Source of the DNA: Escherichia phage vB_EcoP_FFK3
Strand: one strand, 5' to 3'
Sequence record: ON548433.1
Length of the DNA: 39,300 bases
The notes beneath the pieces were generated by a model. The model was given only the letters and a program-made list of their open reading frames with translations. It did not search any database and was not told where the DNA came from. Positions within the stretch are counted from its first letter, which is position 1; the number at the start of each line of letters is the position of its first letter. This document shows positions 1-39,300 of the stretch, in pieces. The position numbers were made by a program, and so were the translations under genes.

Positions 1-581
1 ATAACGCCACGAAGAACAACCGAGCGATGGACGCTGCCCTGTCCACTGTGATCTCTATGGGTCTTGCTGGTATCTACTACATGGCTCAGGCTCATGTCAA
101 GGCTTACGCTATGCAGGATGGTCGAGACCGTGACTACCTCAAGCAAGCTCTAGACCCGACGATGATTGGATATGCAGCTCTATCACGTAGTTCACACCTT
201 GGTGGACCACTTGGGGTAGCTAACATTCTAGGTGGCATCGCTGGGTATGAGGACACTAAGATGCTCCGCTCGTCTATCCTACCTCGTTCGCCTACAGAGA
301 AGCCTGAACGTGCCATCACGTTTGGTGCAGCTACAAGTGACCCTGTGATGAATGTTGTTGGTAACTTCTTGGAGCAGGTTCCAGCTTTCGGATATGCTGC
401 TAACGTTGGCGTTTCTGCTTACAACTTGGCTGGCTACCTCAAGGCTGATACTCGTGTCAACGAGCGTGACTACATGACCGGGATGTATAATACGTTCCGT
501 GAACTGGTTCCGAACGACCCAATTACCCAGAAGCTGTTGCTTGGAACGTTTGAGGAGCAAGGTATCCACATCAAGGACTAA
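1..581 (+). CDS. gp16: Internal virion protein D (gp16), C-terminal fragment; 5-prime end lies outside the window
   Basis: Frame is open from nt 3 with no upstream stop; sits directly upstream of the tailspike gene as in T7 order 16-17; N-terminal part of gp16 runs off the window end at 39300. Confidence 0.6.
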   Translation, partial: NATKNNRAMDAALSTVISMGLAGIYYMAQAHVKAYAMQDGRDRDYLKQALDPTMIGYAALSRSSHLGGPLGVANILGGIAGYEDTKMLRSSILPRSPTEKPERAITFGAATSDPVMNVVGNFLEQVPAFGYAANVGVSAYNLAGYLKADTRVNERDYMTGMYNTFRELVPNDPITQKLLLGTFEEQGIHIKD

Positions 582-17813: not shown

Positions 17814-19517
<1,704 letters not shown>

Positions 19518-19550
19518 TTACGAGAAGTATAAATGGAGGGTTCCATTCTA

Positions 19551-19856
19551 ATGTTACGAAAACTTAAAGCTCGCTACCATCGGTTCATGTACAAATGGTG
19601 GAGTGACGAAGCAACCTGCCTGTCCAACATTCTGGGAGACCAAAGGTTCGAAGGCGTGGGGAGGGTAAAGCTCGATACCATCGGTTCATGTACAAATGGT
19701 GGAGCGACGAAGCAACCTGCCTGTCGAACATTCTGGGAGACCAAAGGTTCGACTCTGAGGCGTGGAAGAGAGCTAACAGGAAGTTTATGTATCACTTCTT
19801 GCGTACAGACTTCTAGGTCTAGACTCAAGGTCATTCATAGCGAGTGGCCTTTATGA
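19551..19856 (+). CDS. Hypothetical small protein, reading frame altered by an internal tandem duplication
   Basis: ATG 19551 with SD GGAGGG; frame runs through duplication copy 1 and then through the downstream stem-loop to 19856; a reconstructed single-copy gene would be 54 aa and stop at 19816. Confidence 0.4.
   Translation: MLRKLKARYHRFMYKWWSDEATCLSNILGDQRFEGVGRVKLDTIGSCTNGGATKQPACRTFWETKGSTLRRGRELTGSLCITSCVQTSRSRLKVIHSEWPL
19565..19765 (+). repeat. Tandem direct duplication (copies 19565-19659 and 19666-19765, offset 101 bp)
   Basis: Copies differ by 3 substitutions plus a 5-bp indel (CTCTG); offset not a multiple of 3. Confidence 0.85.
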
Positions 19857-19860
19857 TTAG
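19819..19860 (+). other. Conserved stem-loop element, putative RNase III site (R4.7-like)
   Basis: CTAGACTCAAGGTCATTC..GTGGCCTTTATGATTAG; stem AAGGTCAT (19827-19834) with GTGGCCTT (19844-19851). Confidence 0.55.
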
Positions 19861-19880
19861 ACTAAAGCGGAGGATTAACC

Positions 19881-22052
19881 ATGTTTGACCTTAAGAGTAT
19901 CTGGGGTTCTGACATCGAGACCAACGGTCTCCTTGATACAGTCTCCCAGTTTCACTGTGGGGTCCTGATTAACGCCGAGTCGAATGAGACCCTTAAGTAT
20001 GGGGTAGCTCCGATGGTCGGTATCGTCGGCGGCTTCAAAGAGTATGTTCATAAAGTGGAAGAGATTGCCGCATCACCTGATGGTATGCTGGTATTCCATA
20101 ACGGCATCAACTATGACGTCCCTGCTATAGACAAGCTGAAACGTATGTACTTTGGGAAACGATTTAACTTCCCGAAACATAAGATGATTGATACCTTGGT
20201 GCTGGGACGCTTGATGTATCCAAACATTAAGTTCTCAGACATGGGCGCAGTGAAAGCTGGTCGTCTGCCGCCTAAGATGATGGGACGACAGTCTCTTGAG
20301 GCTTGGGGCTATCGTCTCGGTGAGATGAAGGGTGAGTACAAACACGATTACGTTGCCAAGTGCAAGGCCGAAGGTATCGAATATAAGGCTGGGGACGAAT
20401 GGTTGTTCCCGTCTCAGGAGATGCTGGACTATAACGTTCAAGACGTTGTGGTCACGCTGGCGTTGTTCAAGAAGTTCCTGACTGACAAGTATTACTTCCA
20501 GTCTGAACAGTTCGCTTTCGACCAGATTTATGCGTTGCGTCTGGAACATGATGCTGCGTGGACCTGTGCGAAGATGGAACGTAACGGCTATCCGATGAAC
20601 ACCGAGATGGTCGAAGGCTTATATCGTGAACTCACCGTCAAGCGTGCAGAGCTGCTGGACAAGCTGCGTTCGACTTTCGGTAGCTGGTACGCACCAAAGG
20701 GCGGAAAGGAGTTCTTCAAGCACCCACGGACAGGCAAGGACCTTCCGAAGTATCCGCGAGTCGTGTATCCTAAGGTCGGGTCAGTATTCAAGAAGCCGAA
20801 GAACAAAGCTCAACGCTTAGGTCTGGAGCCTTGCGAGTTCGACTCACGAGACACGATGGAGGGAGCACCGTTCACACCTATCACTTACGTTGAGTTTAAT
20901 CCGGGAAGCGGGGACCACTTAGCGAAAGTTCTGATGGAGCGTGGCTGGGAGCCTGTGGACTTCACTGACACCGGGAAACCTGTAGTCGATGACGAGACGT
21001 TGGAACACGTTAAGTTGCCAGACGAAGAGGCTCAGGCTTGCGTAGAGCTGGTCCGTGAGTATCTGGTAGTCCAGAAGCGCATCGGTCAGGCTGCTGAAGG
21101 TAAGAACGCATGGTTGAAACTTGTAGGTCCAGACGGACGTATGCACGGTTCAATAAACCCATGCGGGGCAGTAACCGGACGTGCGACTCACAGTTCACCA
21201 AACATGGCTCAGGTCCCTGCTAACGGTGCTCCGTACGGTGAGACTTGCCGTGGTGCTTTCGGTGCAGCGTGGAACAAGAAGGACGGTAAGCCAGACCCTT
21301 GGATTCAAGTAGGCGTGGATGCTTCAGGTCTTGAGCTTCGTTGTCTGGGGAACCGAGCGGCTCCGTTTGATGGTGGCGCCTATGCGAAGACTGTGGTCGA
21401 AGGTGACATCCACTGGGCCAACGCAGTCAACGCTGGGTTAGCACCTAACGTCCCACGCAATAAGTCCAGCCACGACCATGATGCTTTCCGTAACAACGCT
21501 AAGACGTTCATCTATGCGTTCCTATATGGTGCAGGGGCCGCGAAGATTGGACTGATAGTTGGCGGTGGTAAGAAGGAAGGTGCTGCCCTGATGAAGAAAT
21601 TCATTGAGGGTACACCAGCTATTAAAGACCTCAGGGAAGCTGTGAGTAATACGTTAATCTCCGAATCCAAATGGGTAGATGGAGAGAACATCGTGAAGTG
21701 GAAACGTCGCTGGCTGAAAGGTCTGGATGGTCGCCGTATCCACATCCGGTCTCCACACTCAGCACTAAACGCATTACTTCAAGGCGATGGTGCGGTTGTC
21801 TGTAAGCACTGGATTGTAGAGACTGAACGTATGCTTGAAGAGGCAGGGTATGTTCACGGCTGGGAGGGGGACTTCGCGTACATGGCCTGGGTTCACGACG
21901 AATTGCAGATTGCGTGCCGTACTCAGGAGATTGCCGAAGAAGTCGTCAAGATTGCTCAACTTGCTATGCGTAAGGTGGGTGAGTTCTATAACTTTAAATG
22001 TGTCCTTGATACCGAAGGTAAGATTGGACCAACGTGGAAGGAGTGTCACTAA
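19881..22052 (+). CDS. gp5: DNA polymerase (T7 gp5 homolog, family A with 3-prime to 5-prime exonuclease domain)
   Basis: 723 aa; N-terminal exo motif DIETNGL; overall T7 gp5 architecture; RBS GGAGGA. Confidence 0.95.
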   Translation: MFDLKSIWGSDIETNGLLDTVSQFHCGVLINAESNETLKYGVAPMVGIVGGFKEYVHKVEEIAASPDGMLVFHNGINYDVPAIDKLKRMYFGKRFNFPKHKMIDTLVLGRLMYPNIKFSDMGAVKAGRLPPKMMGRQSLEAWGYRLGEMKGEYKHDYVAKCKAEGIEYKAGDEWLFPSQEMLDYNVQDVVVTLALFKKFLTDKYYFQSEQFAFDQIYALRLEHDAAWTCAKMERNGYPMNTEMVEGLYRELTVKRAELLDKLRSTFGSWYAPKGGKEFFKHPRTGKDLPKYPRVVYPKVGSVFKKPKNKAQRLGLEPCEFDSRDTMEGAPFTPITYVEFNPGSGDHLAKVLMERGWEPVDFTDTGKPVVDDETLEHVKLPDEEAQACVELVREYLVVQKRIGQAAEGKNAWLKLVGPDGRMHGSINPCGAVTGRATHSSPNMAQVPANGAPYGETCRGAFGAAWNKKDGKPDPWIQVGVDASGLELRCLGNRAAPFDGGAYAKTVVEGDIHWANAVNAGLAPNVPRNKSSHDHDAFRNNAKTFIYAFLYGAGAAKIGLIVGGGKKEGAALMKKFIEGTPAIKDLREAVSNTLISESKWVDGENIVKWKRRWLKGLDGRRIHIRSPHSALNALLQGDGAVVCKHWIVETERMLEEAGYVHGWEGDFAYMAWVHDELQIACRTQEIAEEVVKIAQLAMRKVGEFYNFKCVLDTEGKIGPTWKECH

Positions 22053-22210
22053 TGGCTAAAACTTATAGTGAGCAGGAGGTCAAAGACCTGATGCGGTCAG
22101 CTTGGTGGTGTGGACACGAGGAGTCTCGTTATAGTCCAAACCTCAGTGGTTCATGCAGTCAAGACATTCATGAAATCCTGAAAGAACATAACGAAGAAGG
22201 AGAAGGCTAA
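22052..22210 (+). CDS. Hypothetical small protein
   Basis: 52-aa ORF; start overlaps pol stop (TAATG) and stop overlaps next start. Confidence 0.4.
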   Translation: MAKTYSEQEVKDLMRSAWWCGHEESRYSPNLSGSCSQDIHEILKEHNEEGEG

Positions 22211-22500
22211 TGGCTATTACTAAACGTATGCGAGTTTCATTCTCGCTTGGCGCTGTACTGTCTACTGAAGAAGTTGAGCACTTCAAGAAGTCTCTCTGTG
22301 AGTTGAGCCGTAAGGTTCTCAATGGTGAGAAGACCACTGGCTTCGAGCGTAAGATGGTCGAGGTCGGCGTTACAGATGGTCTGGAAGCTGTGGTAGAGCT
22401 TGTCTTTAAGAAGGGTATTGTTGATGGTCTGAAAGAAGACCTGAGTCATTATGCTGACAAGCCCAGCTTCGGAGACTTCCGAGTGGAGTTCAAGCAATGA
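22210..22500 (+). CDS. gp5.5-like protein
   Basis: 96 aa; position and size as T7 gp5.5; start overlaps preceding stop. Confidence 0.5.
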   Translation: MAITKRMRVSFSLGAVLSTEEVEHFKKSLCELSRKVLNGEKTTGFERKMVEVGVTDGLEAVVELVFKKGIVDGLKEDLSHYADKPSFGDFRVEFKQ

Positions 22501-33707: not shown

Positions 33708-35990
33708 ATGGCTAGTAATATTGAATCAGCTCTGGCTAATCGGACTATGGGTCGCGGCAGAGCGCCGGGTAAAACTATCGCCGTAAACTATCAAGCAGCC
33801 AGCGTTCAGGCTCCGACTGGGGACTCCGGTCTGGCTCGTGCGTTAACCAACTTCGTTGAGTCTGGGACTGGATTGTACAAGCAGTTCAAGGACGAGGAGA
33901 AGACCAGAGCTGACGAGCGGTCTAACGAGATTATCCGTAAACTGACACCTCAGCAAAGACGTGAGGCTATCCAGAACGGCACATTGCTGTATCAGGATGA
34001 CCCTTACGCTATGGAAGCACTTCGAGTCAAGACTGGTCGTAATGCTGCCTTTGCTGTAGACGACGAGATTAACGTTAAGATTCAGAACGGTGAGTTCCGT
34101 ACACGTCAGGACATGGAAGAGTATCGCCACCAGCGACTTCAGGACGCCGCTAAGTCCTATGCTGAAGAGGCGGGTATTAACCCTACAGACGAGTTCTTCC
34201 AGCGTGGGTTCAACGATAACATCACAGACCGCAACATCGCTATCTATGGGTCTTTCAATAAGTATTTCAGCAAGCAGTCTGAAGAGACAGCAATGTTGAA
34301 CACTCGTATTGAGATGAACTCATTCCTGAACGATGGCGACCTGATGCGTTCACCTGAGTCTGGAAAGACATTCATGGCCTACCTTCGTGATGGACTGACT
34401 ACTGCTGCTATCCCCTCGGACCAGCGAGCGCGGGAGGTCATTACCCAGACGGTCCGTGACGCAATCCAGAAGTCAGGCGGCTCAAACTTCCTACAGCAAG
34501 TACGTGGCGAGCGTATCACCCTTAACGGTGTTGACGCTACCATCGAAGAGATTGTAGGACCTGACGTCTTCAATGCTGCTACGGTTGAGGCCCAAGGTAC
34601 TGAGTATAAACTGGTGGCTAAGTATCAGGAAGACTTAGCGTTAGGCGTTCAGTCTGCGATTCTTCAGGATGACCCAACCATCGGTCTGGCCCAGATTCAG
34701 AAACTCAAGGAGCAGAACAACCTGCTTCAGCCGGGTGAAGAACTAACGCCTCAGCGTCAGATGCTTATTAATGCCGAAGCCAGCTTACTGGAAGCGGTAA
34801 AGCGTAAGTCCGCTGAACAGGCTAAGGAGAACACTAAGTTAATCCAGACCCAGAATAAGCAACTGGTCATTGACCAAGTTTATCAGCGACGTCTGGCTGG
34901 GGACAACGTGTCCACCAACTATGAGGACCTTCCGGTCTCTGAAGCTACAGGAGAGTTCAAGCGTTCAGACATGAACAACTATGCGTCTTCTAAGCTACAG
35001 CAGATTGACCAGATGGACATCCCTGAGGCTGCTAGAGACGCACAGAAGGTGGCATTGTTAAGGGCTGACACTAACAATGGTCCGTTCCGTAATGCCTTCC
35101 AGACGCTGACTCAGGACGCTGCTGGTGAGTGGCAAGCTGCGGTCATCCGTGGGCAGTACGACCCAGACAAGATGCAACGCTTCGAGTCTCTTCGTCGTGC
35201 CTACACTCAGGACCCTTCAAGTTTTGCTGCTCTGTATCCTGACCAAGCTCAGTTGTTCTCTACGTTCGACCAGATGGACAAGATGGGTCTGGACCCTCAG
35301 ACGATGATTGAAGCTGATAAGCAAGCTGCAAGTCAAAGCCGTGAGATGCGCATTGAGTCAGACAAGGCGTGGCAGGAGTTGAAGAACGACTCTCGGAATA
35401 AGGACCTTTCGCGTCTTCCTACGTCTCTGGACGCAAGTGCTCGTAAGGTCTGGGACTCATGGTACTATCGTACAGGTAACGCTGACGCTGCAACTCAGCA
35501 GACTCAACGCTGGCTGAATGAGAACACCGTAACGTTCCAGTCTGAAGGTTCTGATGGTAAGTCAATCGGCATGGTGTCCAAGCACCAGCTTATGGTCGGG
35601 GATAACCCAGAGTCGTGGCAGGTTGGTCGAGACATTATCGACACCGCTCGTAAGCAGCTCATTAAGGCCAACCCTTGGGTAGTGAACTCTCAGTTGTCCG
35701 TTGTTGAACAGAACGGCTCTATCTTCCTCCAAGACGCTACAGGGACTATTCGTATTCGCTACGATAAAGAACTTGTAGGTAAACTCTACCGCGAACAACA
35801 GCAGAAGGCACAAGATGCCGCATATGCTCAGGCAGAACGTGACGCTAACAAGCGGGCGCGTATCGTCGGGACTAAAGCTGCTGGTGATAAACGTCGAGCT
35901 GACCGAGAGGCCAACATCGAGAAGCGCGGTGGGATGTACAATGACGTCTCACTGGAGGGTATCGCAAACGTACTAATCGGTAAGGAGTAA
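33708..35990 (+). CDS. gp15: Internal virion protein C (T7 gp15 homolog)
   Basis: 760 aa; size and position as T7 gp15; RBS GAGGAGG. Confidence 0.85.
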   Translation: MASNIESALANRTMGRGRAPGKTIAVNYQAASVQAPTGDSGLARALTNFVESGTGLYKQFKDEEKTRADERSNEIIRKLTPQQRREAIQNGTLLYQDDPYAMEALRVKTGRNAAFAVDDEINVKIQNGEFRTRQDMEEYRHQRLQDAAKSYAEEAGINPTDEFFQRGFNDNITDRNIAIYGSFNKYFSKQSEETAMLNTRIEMNSFLNDGDLMRSPESGKTFMAYLRDGLTTAAIPSDQRAREVITQTVRDAIQKSGGSNFLQQVRGERITLNGVDATIEEIVGPDVFNAATVEAQGTEYKLVAKYQEDLALGVQSAILQDDPTIGLAQIQKLKEQNNLLQPGEELTPQRQMLINAEASLLEAVKRKSAEQAKENTKLIQTQNKQLVIDQVYQRRLAGDNVSTNYEDLPVSEATGEFKRSDMNNYASSKLQQIDQMDIPEAARDAQKVALLRADTNNGPFRNAFQTLTQDAAGEWQAAVIRGQYDPDKMQRFESLRRAYTQDPSSFAALYPDQAQLFSTFDQMDKMGLDPQTMIEADKQAASQSREMRIESDKAWQELKNDSRNKDLSRLPTSLDASARKVWDSWYYRTGNADAATQQTQRWLNENTVTFQSEGSDGKSIGMVSKHQLMVGDNPESWQVGRDIIDTARKQLIKANPWVVNSQLSVVEQNGSIFLQDATGTIRIRYDKELVGKLYREQQQKAQDAAYAQAERDANKRARIVGTKAAGDKRRADREANIEKRGGMYNDVSLEGIANVLIGKE

Positions 35991-35994
35991 CATA

Positions 35995-38900
35995 ATGGCG
36001 ACTCGTGGTATTCGCAATAACAATCCTGGTAATATACGGGTAAGTAAGGACCAATGGGAAGGAATGACTGGAGATGATGGCGCCTTCGTCACCTTCGATA
36101 GTCCAGAGTCTGGCGTCCGAGCTTTAGGTAAAAACCTGCTGTCCTACGGTCGCCGAGGTTATGACTCCATCGAGAAGATTATCAACCGATGGGCGCCTCC
36201 TAACGAGAACGACACTAAGGCTTATATTGACTCAGTGGTGGCTGCAACTGGTATTCCAGCTACCCAGAGTCTCGACCTATCGAACCCTGACACCCTGTCT
36301 GCTCTGGCGCAAGCTATTAGCTTCCATGAGACAGGCTCCCGGTACAATCCTGAAGTCTATCAGAAGGGAGTCGAAAGAGCACTTAACGGCATTAGCCCAA
36401 AGACTCCACCAGTAAGCGCTAACGTATTTGACGCACTCACGGAAGGACTCAAGGCTAAACCTAAAGTAGCTCTGGGTGAGAACCTTCCGACCGCTGCTGG
36501 TCTAAACATTGAGGGTCAAGCACCTGAAGCTCCCAACGAATCGTTCGGTGAGATGTTCTATAAGTCTACTGGCGAGACCATGCAGGAACGAGAGGATCGC
36601 TCTACGTGGTTCGGTTTCGGCTCGGCTACAGAAGCTGAAGTGAAGAACTCTATGGTCGGCGTGGCTATCCGCGCTGGTCAGACCGAGGACTCACTTGATG
36701 TCATTGGCGATGTGTTCAACCCTACCCGCTGGAACAACCATAAGTGGTCTCGTGAGGAGCTGGACCAGATTCGTAACGCTGGGGTTCTCCCTCAGTATTA
36801 CGGAGTAATTACTGGCGGTTCTCCTCAGAATCTGACAGAGCTGATCAACTTGGCGCTTGAGAACCAGAAGTTGGACCAAGAGAAGGCCAAGGCTGGGACT
36901 GGTGCTCAGCTAGCAGCTGGTGTGATTGGTGCTGGTGTAGATCCTCTGACCTACGTTCCTATCGCTGGACAGGTTGGTAAAGGTGGGAAGCTGGTCAACA
37001 AGATGTTCACCGTGGCTGCTCAATCTGGAGCACTTGCTGGTGTATCAGAGATGGCCCGTACCTCAGTGGCTGGTGGGGATGCTCATGTGGCTGAAGCTAT
37101 CCTTGGTGGTGCTCTCTTCGGCGGAGGCATGACTGCCATCGCTGATGGGTTAGGCAGAGCCTTAGGGCGCAACACTAATGAGTTTGCTGGCCCAGCTACA
37201 CGTCTGGAAGCTCGTGAGACCGCTCGTAACGTTGATGGTCAGGACCTGTCTCGTCTTCCTATTCAGGAAGGTGAGCAGACCTTTAGTCATCAAGGCGTTA
37301 AGTTCGCTGACGTTCCTAATGAGCCTGGTAGTGTGCGGCTGGAGGATGGTTCAATCCTGATTGGTGAGAACCCTCTGAACCCTAAGACACGTAAAGTCTT
37401 CGACGAAGTGATTGAGCCTGAACGGGCCGCTGCTGGTGTGAACCTTGGTGGTCTGACCGAGATTGGCCTGAAGCTGCTTCGGTCTGAGAACCCCGAGATT
37501 CGTGGAGTAGCTGCTGACTTAGTGCGTTCACCGACTGGTATGCAGTCTGGGGCCTCAGGTAAAATCGGGACCACTGCGTCTGACGTATTCGAGAGACTCC
37601 GTGCTGTGGACCATCGGTTCTACAACGACATCGACGATGCGGTTACTGAGGCACTAAAGGACCCGCACTTCCAGACAGCATTCTGGCGAGACTCTGGAGC
37701 ATTCCGTCAGGACATCTACCAGCGCGTGTCTATGGCTATCGAAGATGGCAGCGGAAACCTGAAGGCTGAACTGACTCCGGGAGAACTTAAAGTCTATGAC
37801 CTACTGAAGAACCAGTTTGACGCCAAGCGTGAGATGATGGAGAACCCAGCGATGTTTGGTCGTCCAGACGCTCAGTCTATCTTTCCGGGTAGCCGCTTCA
37901 AGGGAACCTACGTCCCTCATGTGTATAGCAACCAGATGAAGGAGCTGTACACCAAGGAGCTTGGGAGTCCAGAGGCACTACAGGAGGCCATCAAGAAGTC
38001 ATGGTTGACCAGCTATGCGTCTCGACCTGAAGTCAAGAAACGTGTGGACGAGGCACTCTTAGAGTCTGACCCTACGTTGACTCCAGAAGGACTTGCGGCT
38101 GCGGTCGATAAGTACGCCAACGATAAGGCTTATGGTATCTCTCACACCGAGCAGTTCGAGCGTTCATCCGTAATGGAAGAGAACATCAATGGTCTGGTTG
38201 GTCTGGAGAACAACAGCTTCCTTGAGGCTCGTAACCTGTTCGATAGCGATATGTCAATCGTCCTACCTAACGGTCAGACCTTCAGTGTCAACAACCTGCG
38301 TGAGTGGGACATGGACAAGATTGTCCCGGCCTACAACCGTCGAGTTAATGGCGATATTGCTATCATGGCTGGTACAGGCAAGACCACGAAGGACATGAAG
38401 GACTTGGTTGAGACCATGATGAACAAGGCTGGGGATGACGGTAAGTTGAAAGGTGAAGTATCTACCTTACGTGACACCTTGAAGATTCTAACTGGTCGTG
38501 CTCGACGTGATGGGGCTGATGATGCAGCCTTCGCTGCCGTGATGCGCACAATGACAGACCTATCGTTCTTCGCTAAGAATGCCTATATGGGTGTTCAGAA
38601 CTTAACGGAGATTGGTGGTATGCTGGCCCGTGGTAACGTTCGTGCAATGCTGCATGGAGTCCCAATTTTCCGTGACCTAGCCTTCCGTAACAAGAAAGTT
38701 GGGGCCTCAGAGATTAAGGACCTGCACAATGTTATCTTTGGTAAGGAGCTGGATGACTCAATCCGTCCGTCTAAACAGGATGTCATTGACCGTCTGCGAT
38801 CTTACAGTGACCTCGGTCGTGGTGCAGCTACAGCTCTGGGGACTGCCAAGTATTACACTGGCGAACTTGCAGTACGCTCTCCGTTCACTAAAGTCCTCAA

Positions 38901-39300
38901 CGGTACGACCAACTACCTGTTAGATGCTGGACGTCAAGGCTTCCTGTCTGACATCGTGGAGCATAGCCTGACTGGTAGTAAGCGTAAGTTCGATGACCGC
39001 TGGCTGAAGACCGCTGGTATCTCTGACGAGCAGTGGAAGGGCATTAAGTCCCTAATCCGTGAGTCAGTGACTCGTGGTCCAGACGGGAAGTATATCATCA
39101 AGGATAAGAAGGCGTTCAGTCAGGACCCAAGGGCTATGGACCTGTGGCGTATGGGTGATACCATCGCTGACGAAACGTTACTCCGTCCTCATAAGCTGTC
39201 CAACATGGACGCCAAGGCTTATGGTCCTATCGCTAAGACTGTCCTTCAGTTTAAGAACTTCGTCATCAAGTCCATCAATGGACGTACCATGCGAACCTTC
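35995..39300 (+). CDS. gp16: Internal virion protein D (gp16), N-terminal 1102 codons; 3-prime end beyond the window
   Basis: ORF from ATG 35995 open to the window end; position after gp15; large size as T7 gp16; continues into the fragment at window start. Confidence 0.85.
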   Translation, partial: MATRGIRNNNPGNIRVSKDQWEGMTGDDGAFVTFDSPESGVRALGKNLLSYGRRGYDSIEKIINRWAPPNENDTKAYIDSVVAATGIPATQSLDLSNPDTLSALAQAISFHETGSRYNPEVYQKGVERALNGISPKTPPVSANVFDALTEGLKAKPKVALGENLPTAAGLNIEGQAPEAPNESFGEMFYKSTGETMQEREDRSTWFGFGSATEAEVKNSMVGVAIRAGQTEDSLDVIGDVFNPTRWNNHKWSREELDQIRNAGVLPQYYGVITGGSPQNLTELINLALENQKLDQEKAKAGTGAQLAAGVIGAGVDPLTYVPIAGQVGKGGKLVNKMFTVAAQSGALAGVSEMARTSVAGGDAHVAEAILGGALFGGGMTAIADGLGRALGRNTNEFAGPATRLEARETARNVDGQDLSRLPIQEGEQTFSHQGVKFADVPNEPGSVRLEDGSILIGENPLNPKTRKVFDEVIEPERAAAGVNLGGLTEIGLKLLRSENPEIRGVAADLVRSPTGMQSGASGKIGTTASDVFERLRAVDHRFYNDIDDAVTEALKDPHFQTAFWRDSGAFRQDIYQRVSMAIEDGSGNLKAELTPGELKVYDLLKNQFDAKREMMENPAMFGRPDAQSIFPGSRFKGTYVPHVYSNQMKELYTKELGSPEALQEAIKKSWLTSYASRPEVKKRVDEALLESDPTLTPEGLAAAVDKYANDKAYGISHTEQFERSSVMEENINGLVGLENNSFLEARNLFDSDMSIVLPNGQTFSVNNLREWDMDKIVPAYNRRVNGDIAIMAGTGKTTKDMKDLVETMMNKAGDDGKLKGEVSTLRDTLKILTGRARRDGADDAAFAAVMRTMTDLSFFAKNAYMGVQNLTEIGGMLARGNVRAMLHGVPIFRDLAFRNKKVGASEIKDLHNVIFGKELDDSIRPSKQDVIDRLRSYSDLGRGAATALGTAKYYTGELAVRSPFTKVLNGTTNYLLDAGRQGFLSDIVEHSLTGSKRKFDDRWLKTAGISDEQWKGIKSLIRESVTRGPDGKYIIKDKKAFSQDPRAMDLWRMGDTIADETLLRPHKLSNMDAKAYGPIAKTVLQFKNFVIKSINGRTMRTF

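Follow-up and report, generated by a model that had tools for sequence, protein, structure and literature searches.

A 101-bp tandem duplication between genes 4 and 5 of a Kayfunavirus genome is almost certainly a genome-closing scar that conceals an ordinary gp4.3 gene

Between the primase/helicase gene (gene 4) and the DNA polymerase gene (gene 5) of the DNA analysed here (the window, the whole stretch of 39300 nt) a short segment is repeated head to tail, and the small gene that carries the first copy runs on into the second in the wrong frame. Is this a duplication that the phage tolerates and that gives the protein a new C-terminus, is it deliberate recoding, or is it a fault of assembly? 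We compared assembled phage records with the published method by which the record closest to the window was made. We conclude, at a probability of about 0.96, that the 101-bp duplication is not biology but a scar of genome closing, made up of an untrimmed overlap of the contig ends and of Ns that were filled in afterwards. The features of the locus are as follows.

17817–19517, + strand: gene 4, primase/helicase, a 566-aa ORF; KY295894 and NC_047808 have it as replicative DNA helicase / toprim protein.
19551–19856, + strand: chimeric 101-aa ORF, consisting of gp4.3 residues 1–33 followed by out-of-frame filler, copy 2 and hairpin.
19565–19651, + strand: copy 1, an 87-nt exact run in KY295894.1 that in the window shares 97% identity with copy 2.
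19652–19665, + strand: filler AGGCGTGGGGAGGG, the 14 nt between copy 1 and copy 2.
19666–19752, + strand: copy 2, which carries three window-specific substitutions (19675, 19705 and 19726).
19688–19816, + strand: remnant ORF of 42 aa, which corresponds to gp4.3 residues 13–54 in the ancestral frame.
19551–19651 joined to 19753–19816, + strand: true gp4.3, 54 aa, as the repaired translation.
19816–19863, + strand: stem-loop between gp4.3 and gene 5, core stem 19825–19836 / 19842–19850.
19881–22052, + strand: gene 5, DNA polymerase, a 723-aa ORF assigned by annotation, with ATG 19881 preceded by the gene 5 ribosome-binding site.

A repeat search of the window returned a direct tandem repeat of 87 nt with 97% identity, three mismatches and a start-to-start spacing of 101; TRF reported a period of 101 with 1.9 copies and a score of 355. 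The repeat is far beyond chance. The duplication with a 101-bp offset that had been described from the sequence alone (19565–19659 and 19666–19765) is therefore present in the window, and it consists of the 87-nt core plus the extension AGGCGTGG. This extension is the first 8 nt of the filler (19652–19659) and equals 19758–19765, which lie 5 nt further along in the downstream flank of copy 2. The filler's GGAGGG(T) in turn equals the true upstream flank at 19535–19541. The same reading had recorded a 5-bp indel between the copies; a 5-nt offset does exist in the window, but it is not an evolutionary indel and belongs to the 14-nt filler, a composite of both true flanks.

The reading frame across the repeat is easily followed. 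The chimeric ORF starts at ATG 19551 or 19533; copy 1 is in frame with the start, copy 2 falls into another frame because 101 = 3 × 33 + 2, and the ORF continues through the hairpin to 19856, just as the sequence-only reading had it. Deletion of one repeat unit leaves a 165-nt ORF of 54 aa that ends at 19816. The prediction that removing a copy would give a clean 54-aa gene from ATG 19551 is thus borne out, and by more than the frame: the repaired protein has the same sequence as its counterpart in Esher2 (the closest relative), lies 2–3 residues away from the phiHAO1-1 and ASO2B proteins and matches the PHROG profile phrog_13039 over its full length (1–54 of 54, E 4.9e-39), whereas the chimeric ORF as it stands matches the profile with residues 1–34 only. 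Pfam gave no family for either the repaired or the as-is protein. Without the extra 101 nt, the alignment to Esher2 runs for 599 nt at 99.3% and needs no gap.

Relatives have a 165-nt CDS annotated at this place, and the ASO2B entry notes its similarity to K1F gp4.3. For vB_EcoP_F, no CDS is annotated in the gene 4–gene 5 interval in GenBank or RefSeq. The K1F gp4.3 family (phrog_13039) comprises a small protein, with no assigned function, whose gene lies between genes 4 and 5 of Kayfunavirus phages. Like the members of this family, the repaired gene encodes 54 aa, occupies the same position and is followed by the same hairpin; unlike them, the gene is broken after codon 33, in the record as well as in the window, and is unannotated. 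The locus really holds a single, ordinary, conserved 54-aa gp4.3 homologue, with the conserved hairpin and then gene 5 behind it. Both other ORFs, the 101-aa read-through and the 42-aa remnant, are by-products of the artefact.

The stem-loop downstream of gp4.3 (MFE −21.4 kcal/mol, z −2.59) is nearly invariant among relatives. It is annotated as a rho-independent terminator in ASO2B and is without a clear U-tract; a scan of 19400–20000 for sigma-70 promoters and simple intrinsic terminators called nothing, the stem-loop included. Position 19851, within the stem-loop, is G in KY295894.1 and T in the window and in all three aligned relatives.

How widely is the two-copy arrangement distributed? 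Alignment to the small genes of related phages had been proposed as a check, and it is informative. Among 190 phage records that match 19440–19900, only the two vB_EcoP_F records have two copies; the remaining 188 are single-copy and span about 337–377 nt (~360) versus 461. The sole match of a junction 30-mer was the IMG/VR copy of the KY295894.1 record, and the 30-mer was absent from the metagenome and GTDB genome contigs searched.

The window has the same length (39300 bp) and register as vB_EcoP_F, a K1F-like Kayfunavirus (KY295894.1 / NC_047808.1). Compared with these records and with IMGVR_UViG_2974615076_000001 it shows 486 substitutions and no indels, and both technical scars (the second is described below) are present. 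Within annotated CDS, 263 of the substitutions are synonymous and 103 non-synonymous (72% synonymous), and 273 of these 366 fall at codon position 3. In a 2.36-kb sample, the window allele was found in at least one of three relatives at 20 of 36 sites, a strong enrichment for alleles of related Kayfunavirus genomes.

The differences between the two copies have to be read against this background. They are 19574/19675 (C/A), 19604/19705 (T/C) and 19625/19726 (C/G), and in the gp4.3 frame all three fall at third positions and leave the amino acid unchanged, as had been observed from the letters of the window. The observation holds for the window and not for KY295894.1 / NC_047808.1, where the copies are identical (87/87 in KY295894.1 and also in the IMG/VR copy). 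Positions 19675, 19705 and 19726 are all window-versus-record changes and all lie in copy 2; copy 1 and filler (115 nt) contain none, where 1.4 would be expected, which is unremarkable. The three differences belong to a separate, genome-wide layer of changes between window and record. Selection maintaining both copies was considered as their cause and rejected: because the synonymous changes are absent from the deposited record, they are no evidence of selection on both copies, and they match the genome-wide pattern of 72% synonymous substitutions.

The position of the repeat in the record points to its origin. The last base of the exact run in copy 1 is 19651, 1 nt from the midpoint of the record (19650); by simple arithmetic, the chance that a random site falls within 16 nt of the midpoint is p ~8e-4. 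A second irregularity is found where the record ends and begins.

39251–39300, + strand: record end; compared with Esher2, the join of 39300 to 1 lacks exactly one base (T).

In a blastn comparison with Esher2 gp16, a single 1-nt gap lies exactly at the 39300|1 join. The missing base frameshifts gp16, which is divided into 35977..39300+1..48 and 27..581. The larger part of gp16 (35977–39300) is unannotated in GenBank. The gap at 39300|1 is the second scar, in all likelihood of the same cut-and-swap rotation that centred the first.

The genomes of the source study were each obtained as a single contig from SPAdes 3.6.2; the end of the contig was joined to its beginning by a string of Ns, the Ns were then filled from re-mapped reads, and the reads were deposited in ENA (Baig et al., 2017; PMC5582158). 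All nine records of the study (KY295891–KY295899) were tested for a scar at the midpoint. As predicted for a scar left by a shared pipeline, 9/9 have a join scar within about 110 nt of their own midpoint. In six of them, vB_EcoP_F included, it takes the form of a 79–105-bp tandem duplication with filler. The scars of the eight siblings are listed here.

B (KY295891), 21935–22085: tandem duplication, offset 87.
D (KY295893), 22296–22457: tandem duplication, offset 100, with a literal N at 22358, the end of copy 1.
G (KY295895), 20620–20811: tandem duplication, offset 105, with an 87-nt exact run as in F; inside the structural-protein gene G_25.
L (KY295896), 20436–20599: tandem duplication, offset 104; at a lysozyme gene that appears as two CDS, L_34/L_35, in the annotation.
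P (KY295898), 20520–20666: tandem duplication, offset 79; at the split spanin CDS P_24/P_25.
C (KY295892), about 22472–22489: 9-bp tandem duplication near the midpoint.
R (KY295899), about 22471: 26-bp deletion at the midpoint; annotation split into R_31 and R_32.
K (KY295897), 18888 (midpoint 18887.5): rearrangement breakpoint.

The fillers of B, D, G, L and P measure 11–44 nt, and those of G and P are flank patchworks analogous to the filler in F. A technical, possibly adaptor-derived motif (GAAGG..GGGGAG-like) shared by the fillers of F, B and L was also considered and dropped, since flank patchwork explains the fillers of F, G and P base by base. The duplication in D is missing in C, even though C matches D at 99.6–100% across the region. 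When F, B, C, D and G were scanned over their full length, no further repeat of this kind was found. At the breakpoint in K, the adjoining segments match phage B in a different order and orientation, which suggests that the K record was mis-joined at its midpoint.

These features can be combined into a scheme for how the duplication arose. When a genome is circular or terminally redundant, the last bases of a SPAdes contig repeat the first (a terminal k-mer overlap). If the genome of vB_EcoP_F was of either kind, its contig would have carried such an overlap, starting at TAAAGCTCGC and ending at GGTTCGA or slightly beyond. The ends would then have been joined through Ns with the overlap left untrimmed, such that copy 1 would represent the old 3′ end of the contig, the 14-nt filler the former Ns and copy 2 the old 5′ start. 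We infer that the sequence was subsequently cut mid-way and the halves swapped, a step that would have moved the join to the centre of the record and cost one base at the new ends. The filler appears to be stitched from both true flanks, probably by gapped read alignments that were forced into a run of Ns with no real sequence behind it. Such a patchwork speaks against a clean biological head-to-tail duplication, which would not show the flank matches.

The vB_EcoP_F scar behaves in most respects like an untrimmed overlap from a de Bruijn-graph assembler such as SPAdes: identical copies flank the original join, the arrangement is absent from relatives and recurs in every genome from the same pipeline, and the repeat measures tens to ~100 nt, within the range of assembler k. 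It departs from a plain untrimmed overlap in that the copies are separated by 14 nt of pseudo-sequence derived from Ns and the join has been centred by the swap of halves. It departs also in length: default SPAdes k is 77, 99 or 127, none of which equals the 87-nt exact overlap, and the route from an overlap plus Ns to the 87 + 14 architecture is one that we infer. Among the six duplications, the exact runs are 87 (F and G), 68, 64, 62 and 60 nt with offsets of 79–105, and the k values are not given in PMC5582158.

If the phage F stock truly carried a tolerated 101-bp tandem duplication that disrupts a non-essential gp4.3, and the repeat then broke the SPAdes contig, the scar would lie at the same point. 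Assemblers can break at repeats, and, as is known from T7 genetics, T7-like phages can generally do without small genes of the gp4.3 class. The repeat also stands in the deposited sequence, and the three differences between the copies in the window, which count against the artefact, would on their own suggest an older, real duplication; the copies are, however, identical in the record. By itself, the location at the midpoint is compatible with a real duplication, because a true repeat can also break the contig there. What tells against it is that a midpoint scar occurs in nine of nine same-pipeline genomes, related or unrelated, that one of them retains an N and that the filler in F is a patchwork of both flanks; with these three observations a real duplication is effectively excluded. 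Moreover, its junction occurs in no relative and in no independent assembly searched, and an 87-nt repeat, being shorter than the 2×250 reads and the larger SPAdes k, should not force a break. T7-like phages do acquire genuine short tandem duplications, by recombination or slippage at microhomologies. These are likewise head-to-tail and would likewise sit in a small, probably dispensable gene, but their junction is a clean one at a microhomology that reads can reveal, in contrast to the flank-patchwork filler, the midpoint position and the eight scarred siblings met here. We therefore regard a real duplication as very improbable. A more specific form of it, in which a recent 101-bp duplication in the Smith-Huggins phage F stock had a templated-patchwork junction, knocked out gp4.3 and broke the contig at the repeat, seems to us slighter still.

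Deliberate recoding would require a programmed −1 frameshift, or a restart at ATG 19688, that yields either a gp4.3 with a duplicated domain or two products. Read from ATG 19551, copy 2 does have its ancestral frame at −1; the junction contains an 'A AAG' tetranucleotide with GGAGGG before it; and none of the three window substitutions changes an amino acid in the ancestral frame. Several observations stand against this explanation. The junction is a technical join; a reading of 19607–19672 found no canonical X XXY YYZ heptamer; ATG 19688 lacks a suitably spaced Shine-Dalgarno sequence (the last base of GGAGGG lies 22 nt upstream of it); and the synonymous changes are absent from the deposited record and follow the genome-wide substitution pattern. 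The two-copy arrangement is, in addition, absent from every relative among the matching records. We give this explanation practically no weight. Of the three possibilities that the sequence-only reading had left side by side, the assembly artefact is the one that stands, while a new C-terminus and deliberate recoding find no support: none of the matching relatives is two-copy, and a canonical slippery site is absent.

Understood as a genome-closing scar, the duplication is without biological significance, and its interest is one of curation only. RefSeq represents the species Kayfunavirus F by KY295894.1 / NC_047808.1; in this record a false 101-bp duplication hides gp4.3 and a missing base splits gp16. 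Eight sibling records carry equivalent midpoint scars, including those for Vectrevirus bee, cee and kay, and in several of the siblings annotated CDSs are split at the scar or contain it. Artefacts of this class can be flagged cheaply and generally by a repeat or indel that lies exactly halfway along a record. Until the records are corrected, scans of phage genomes for duplications, frameshifts and recoding will keep flagging these sites.
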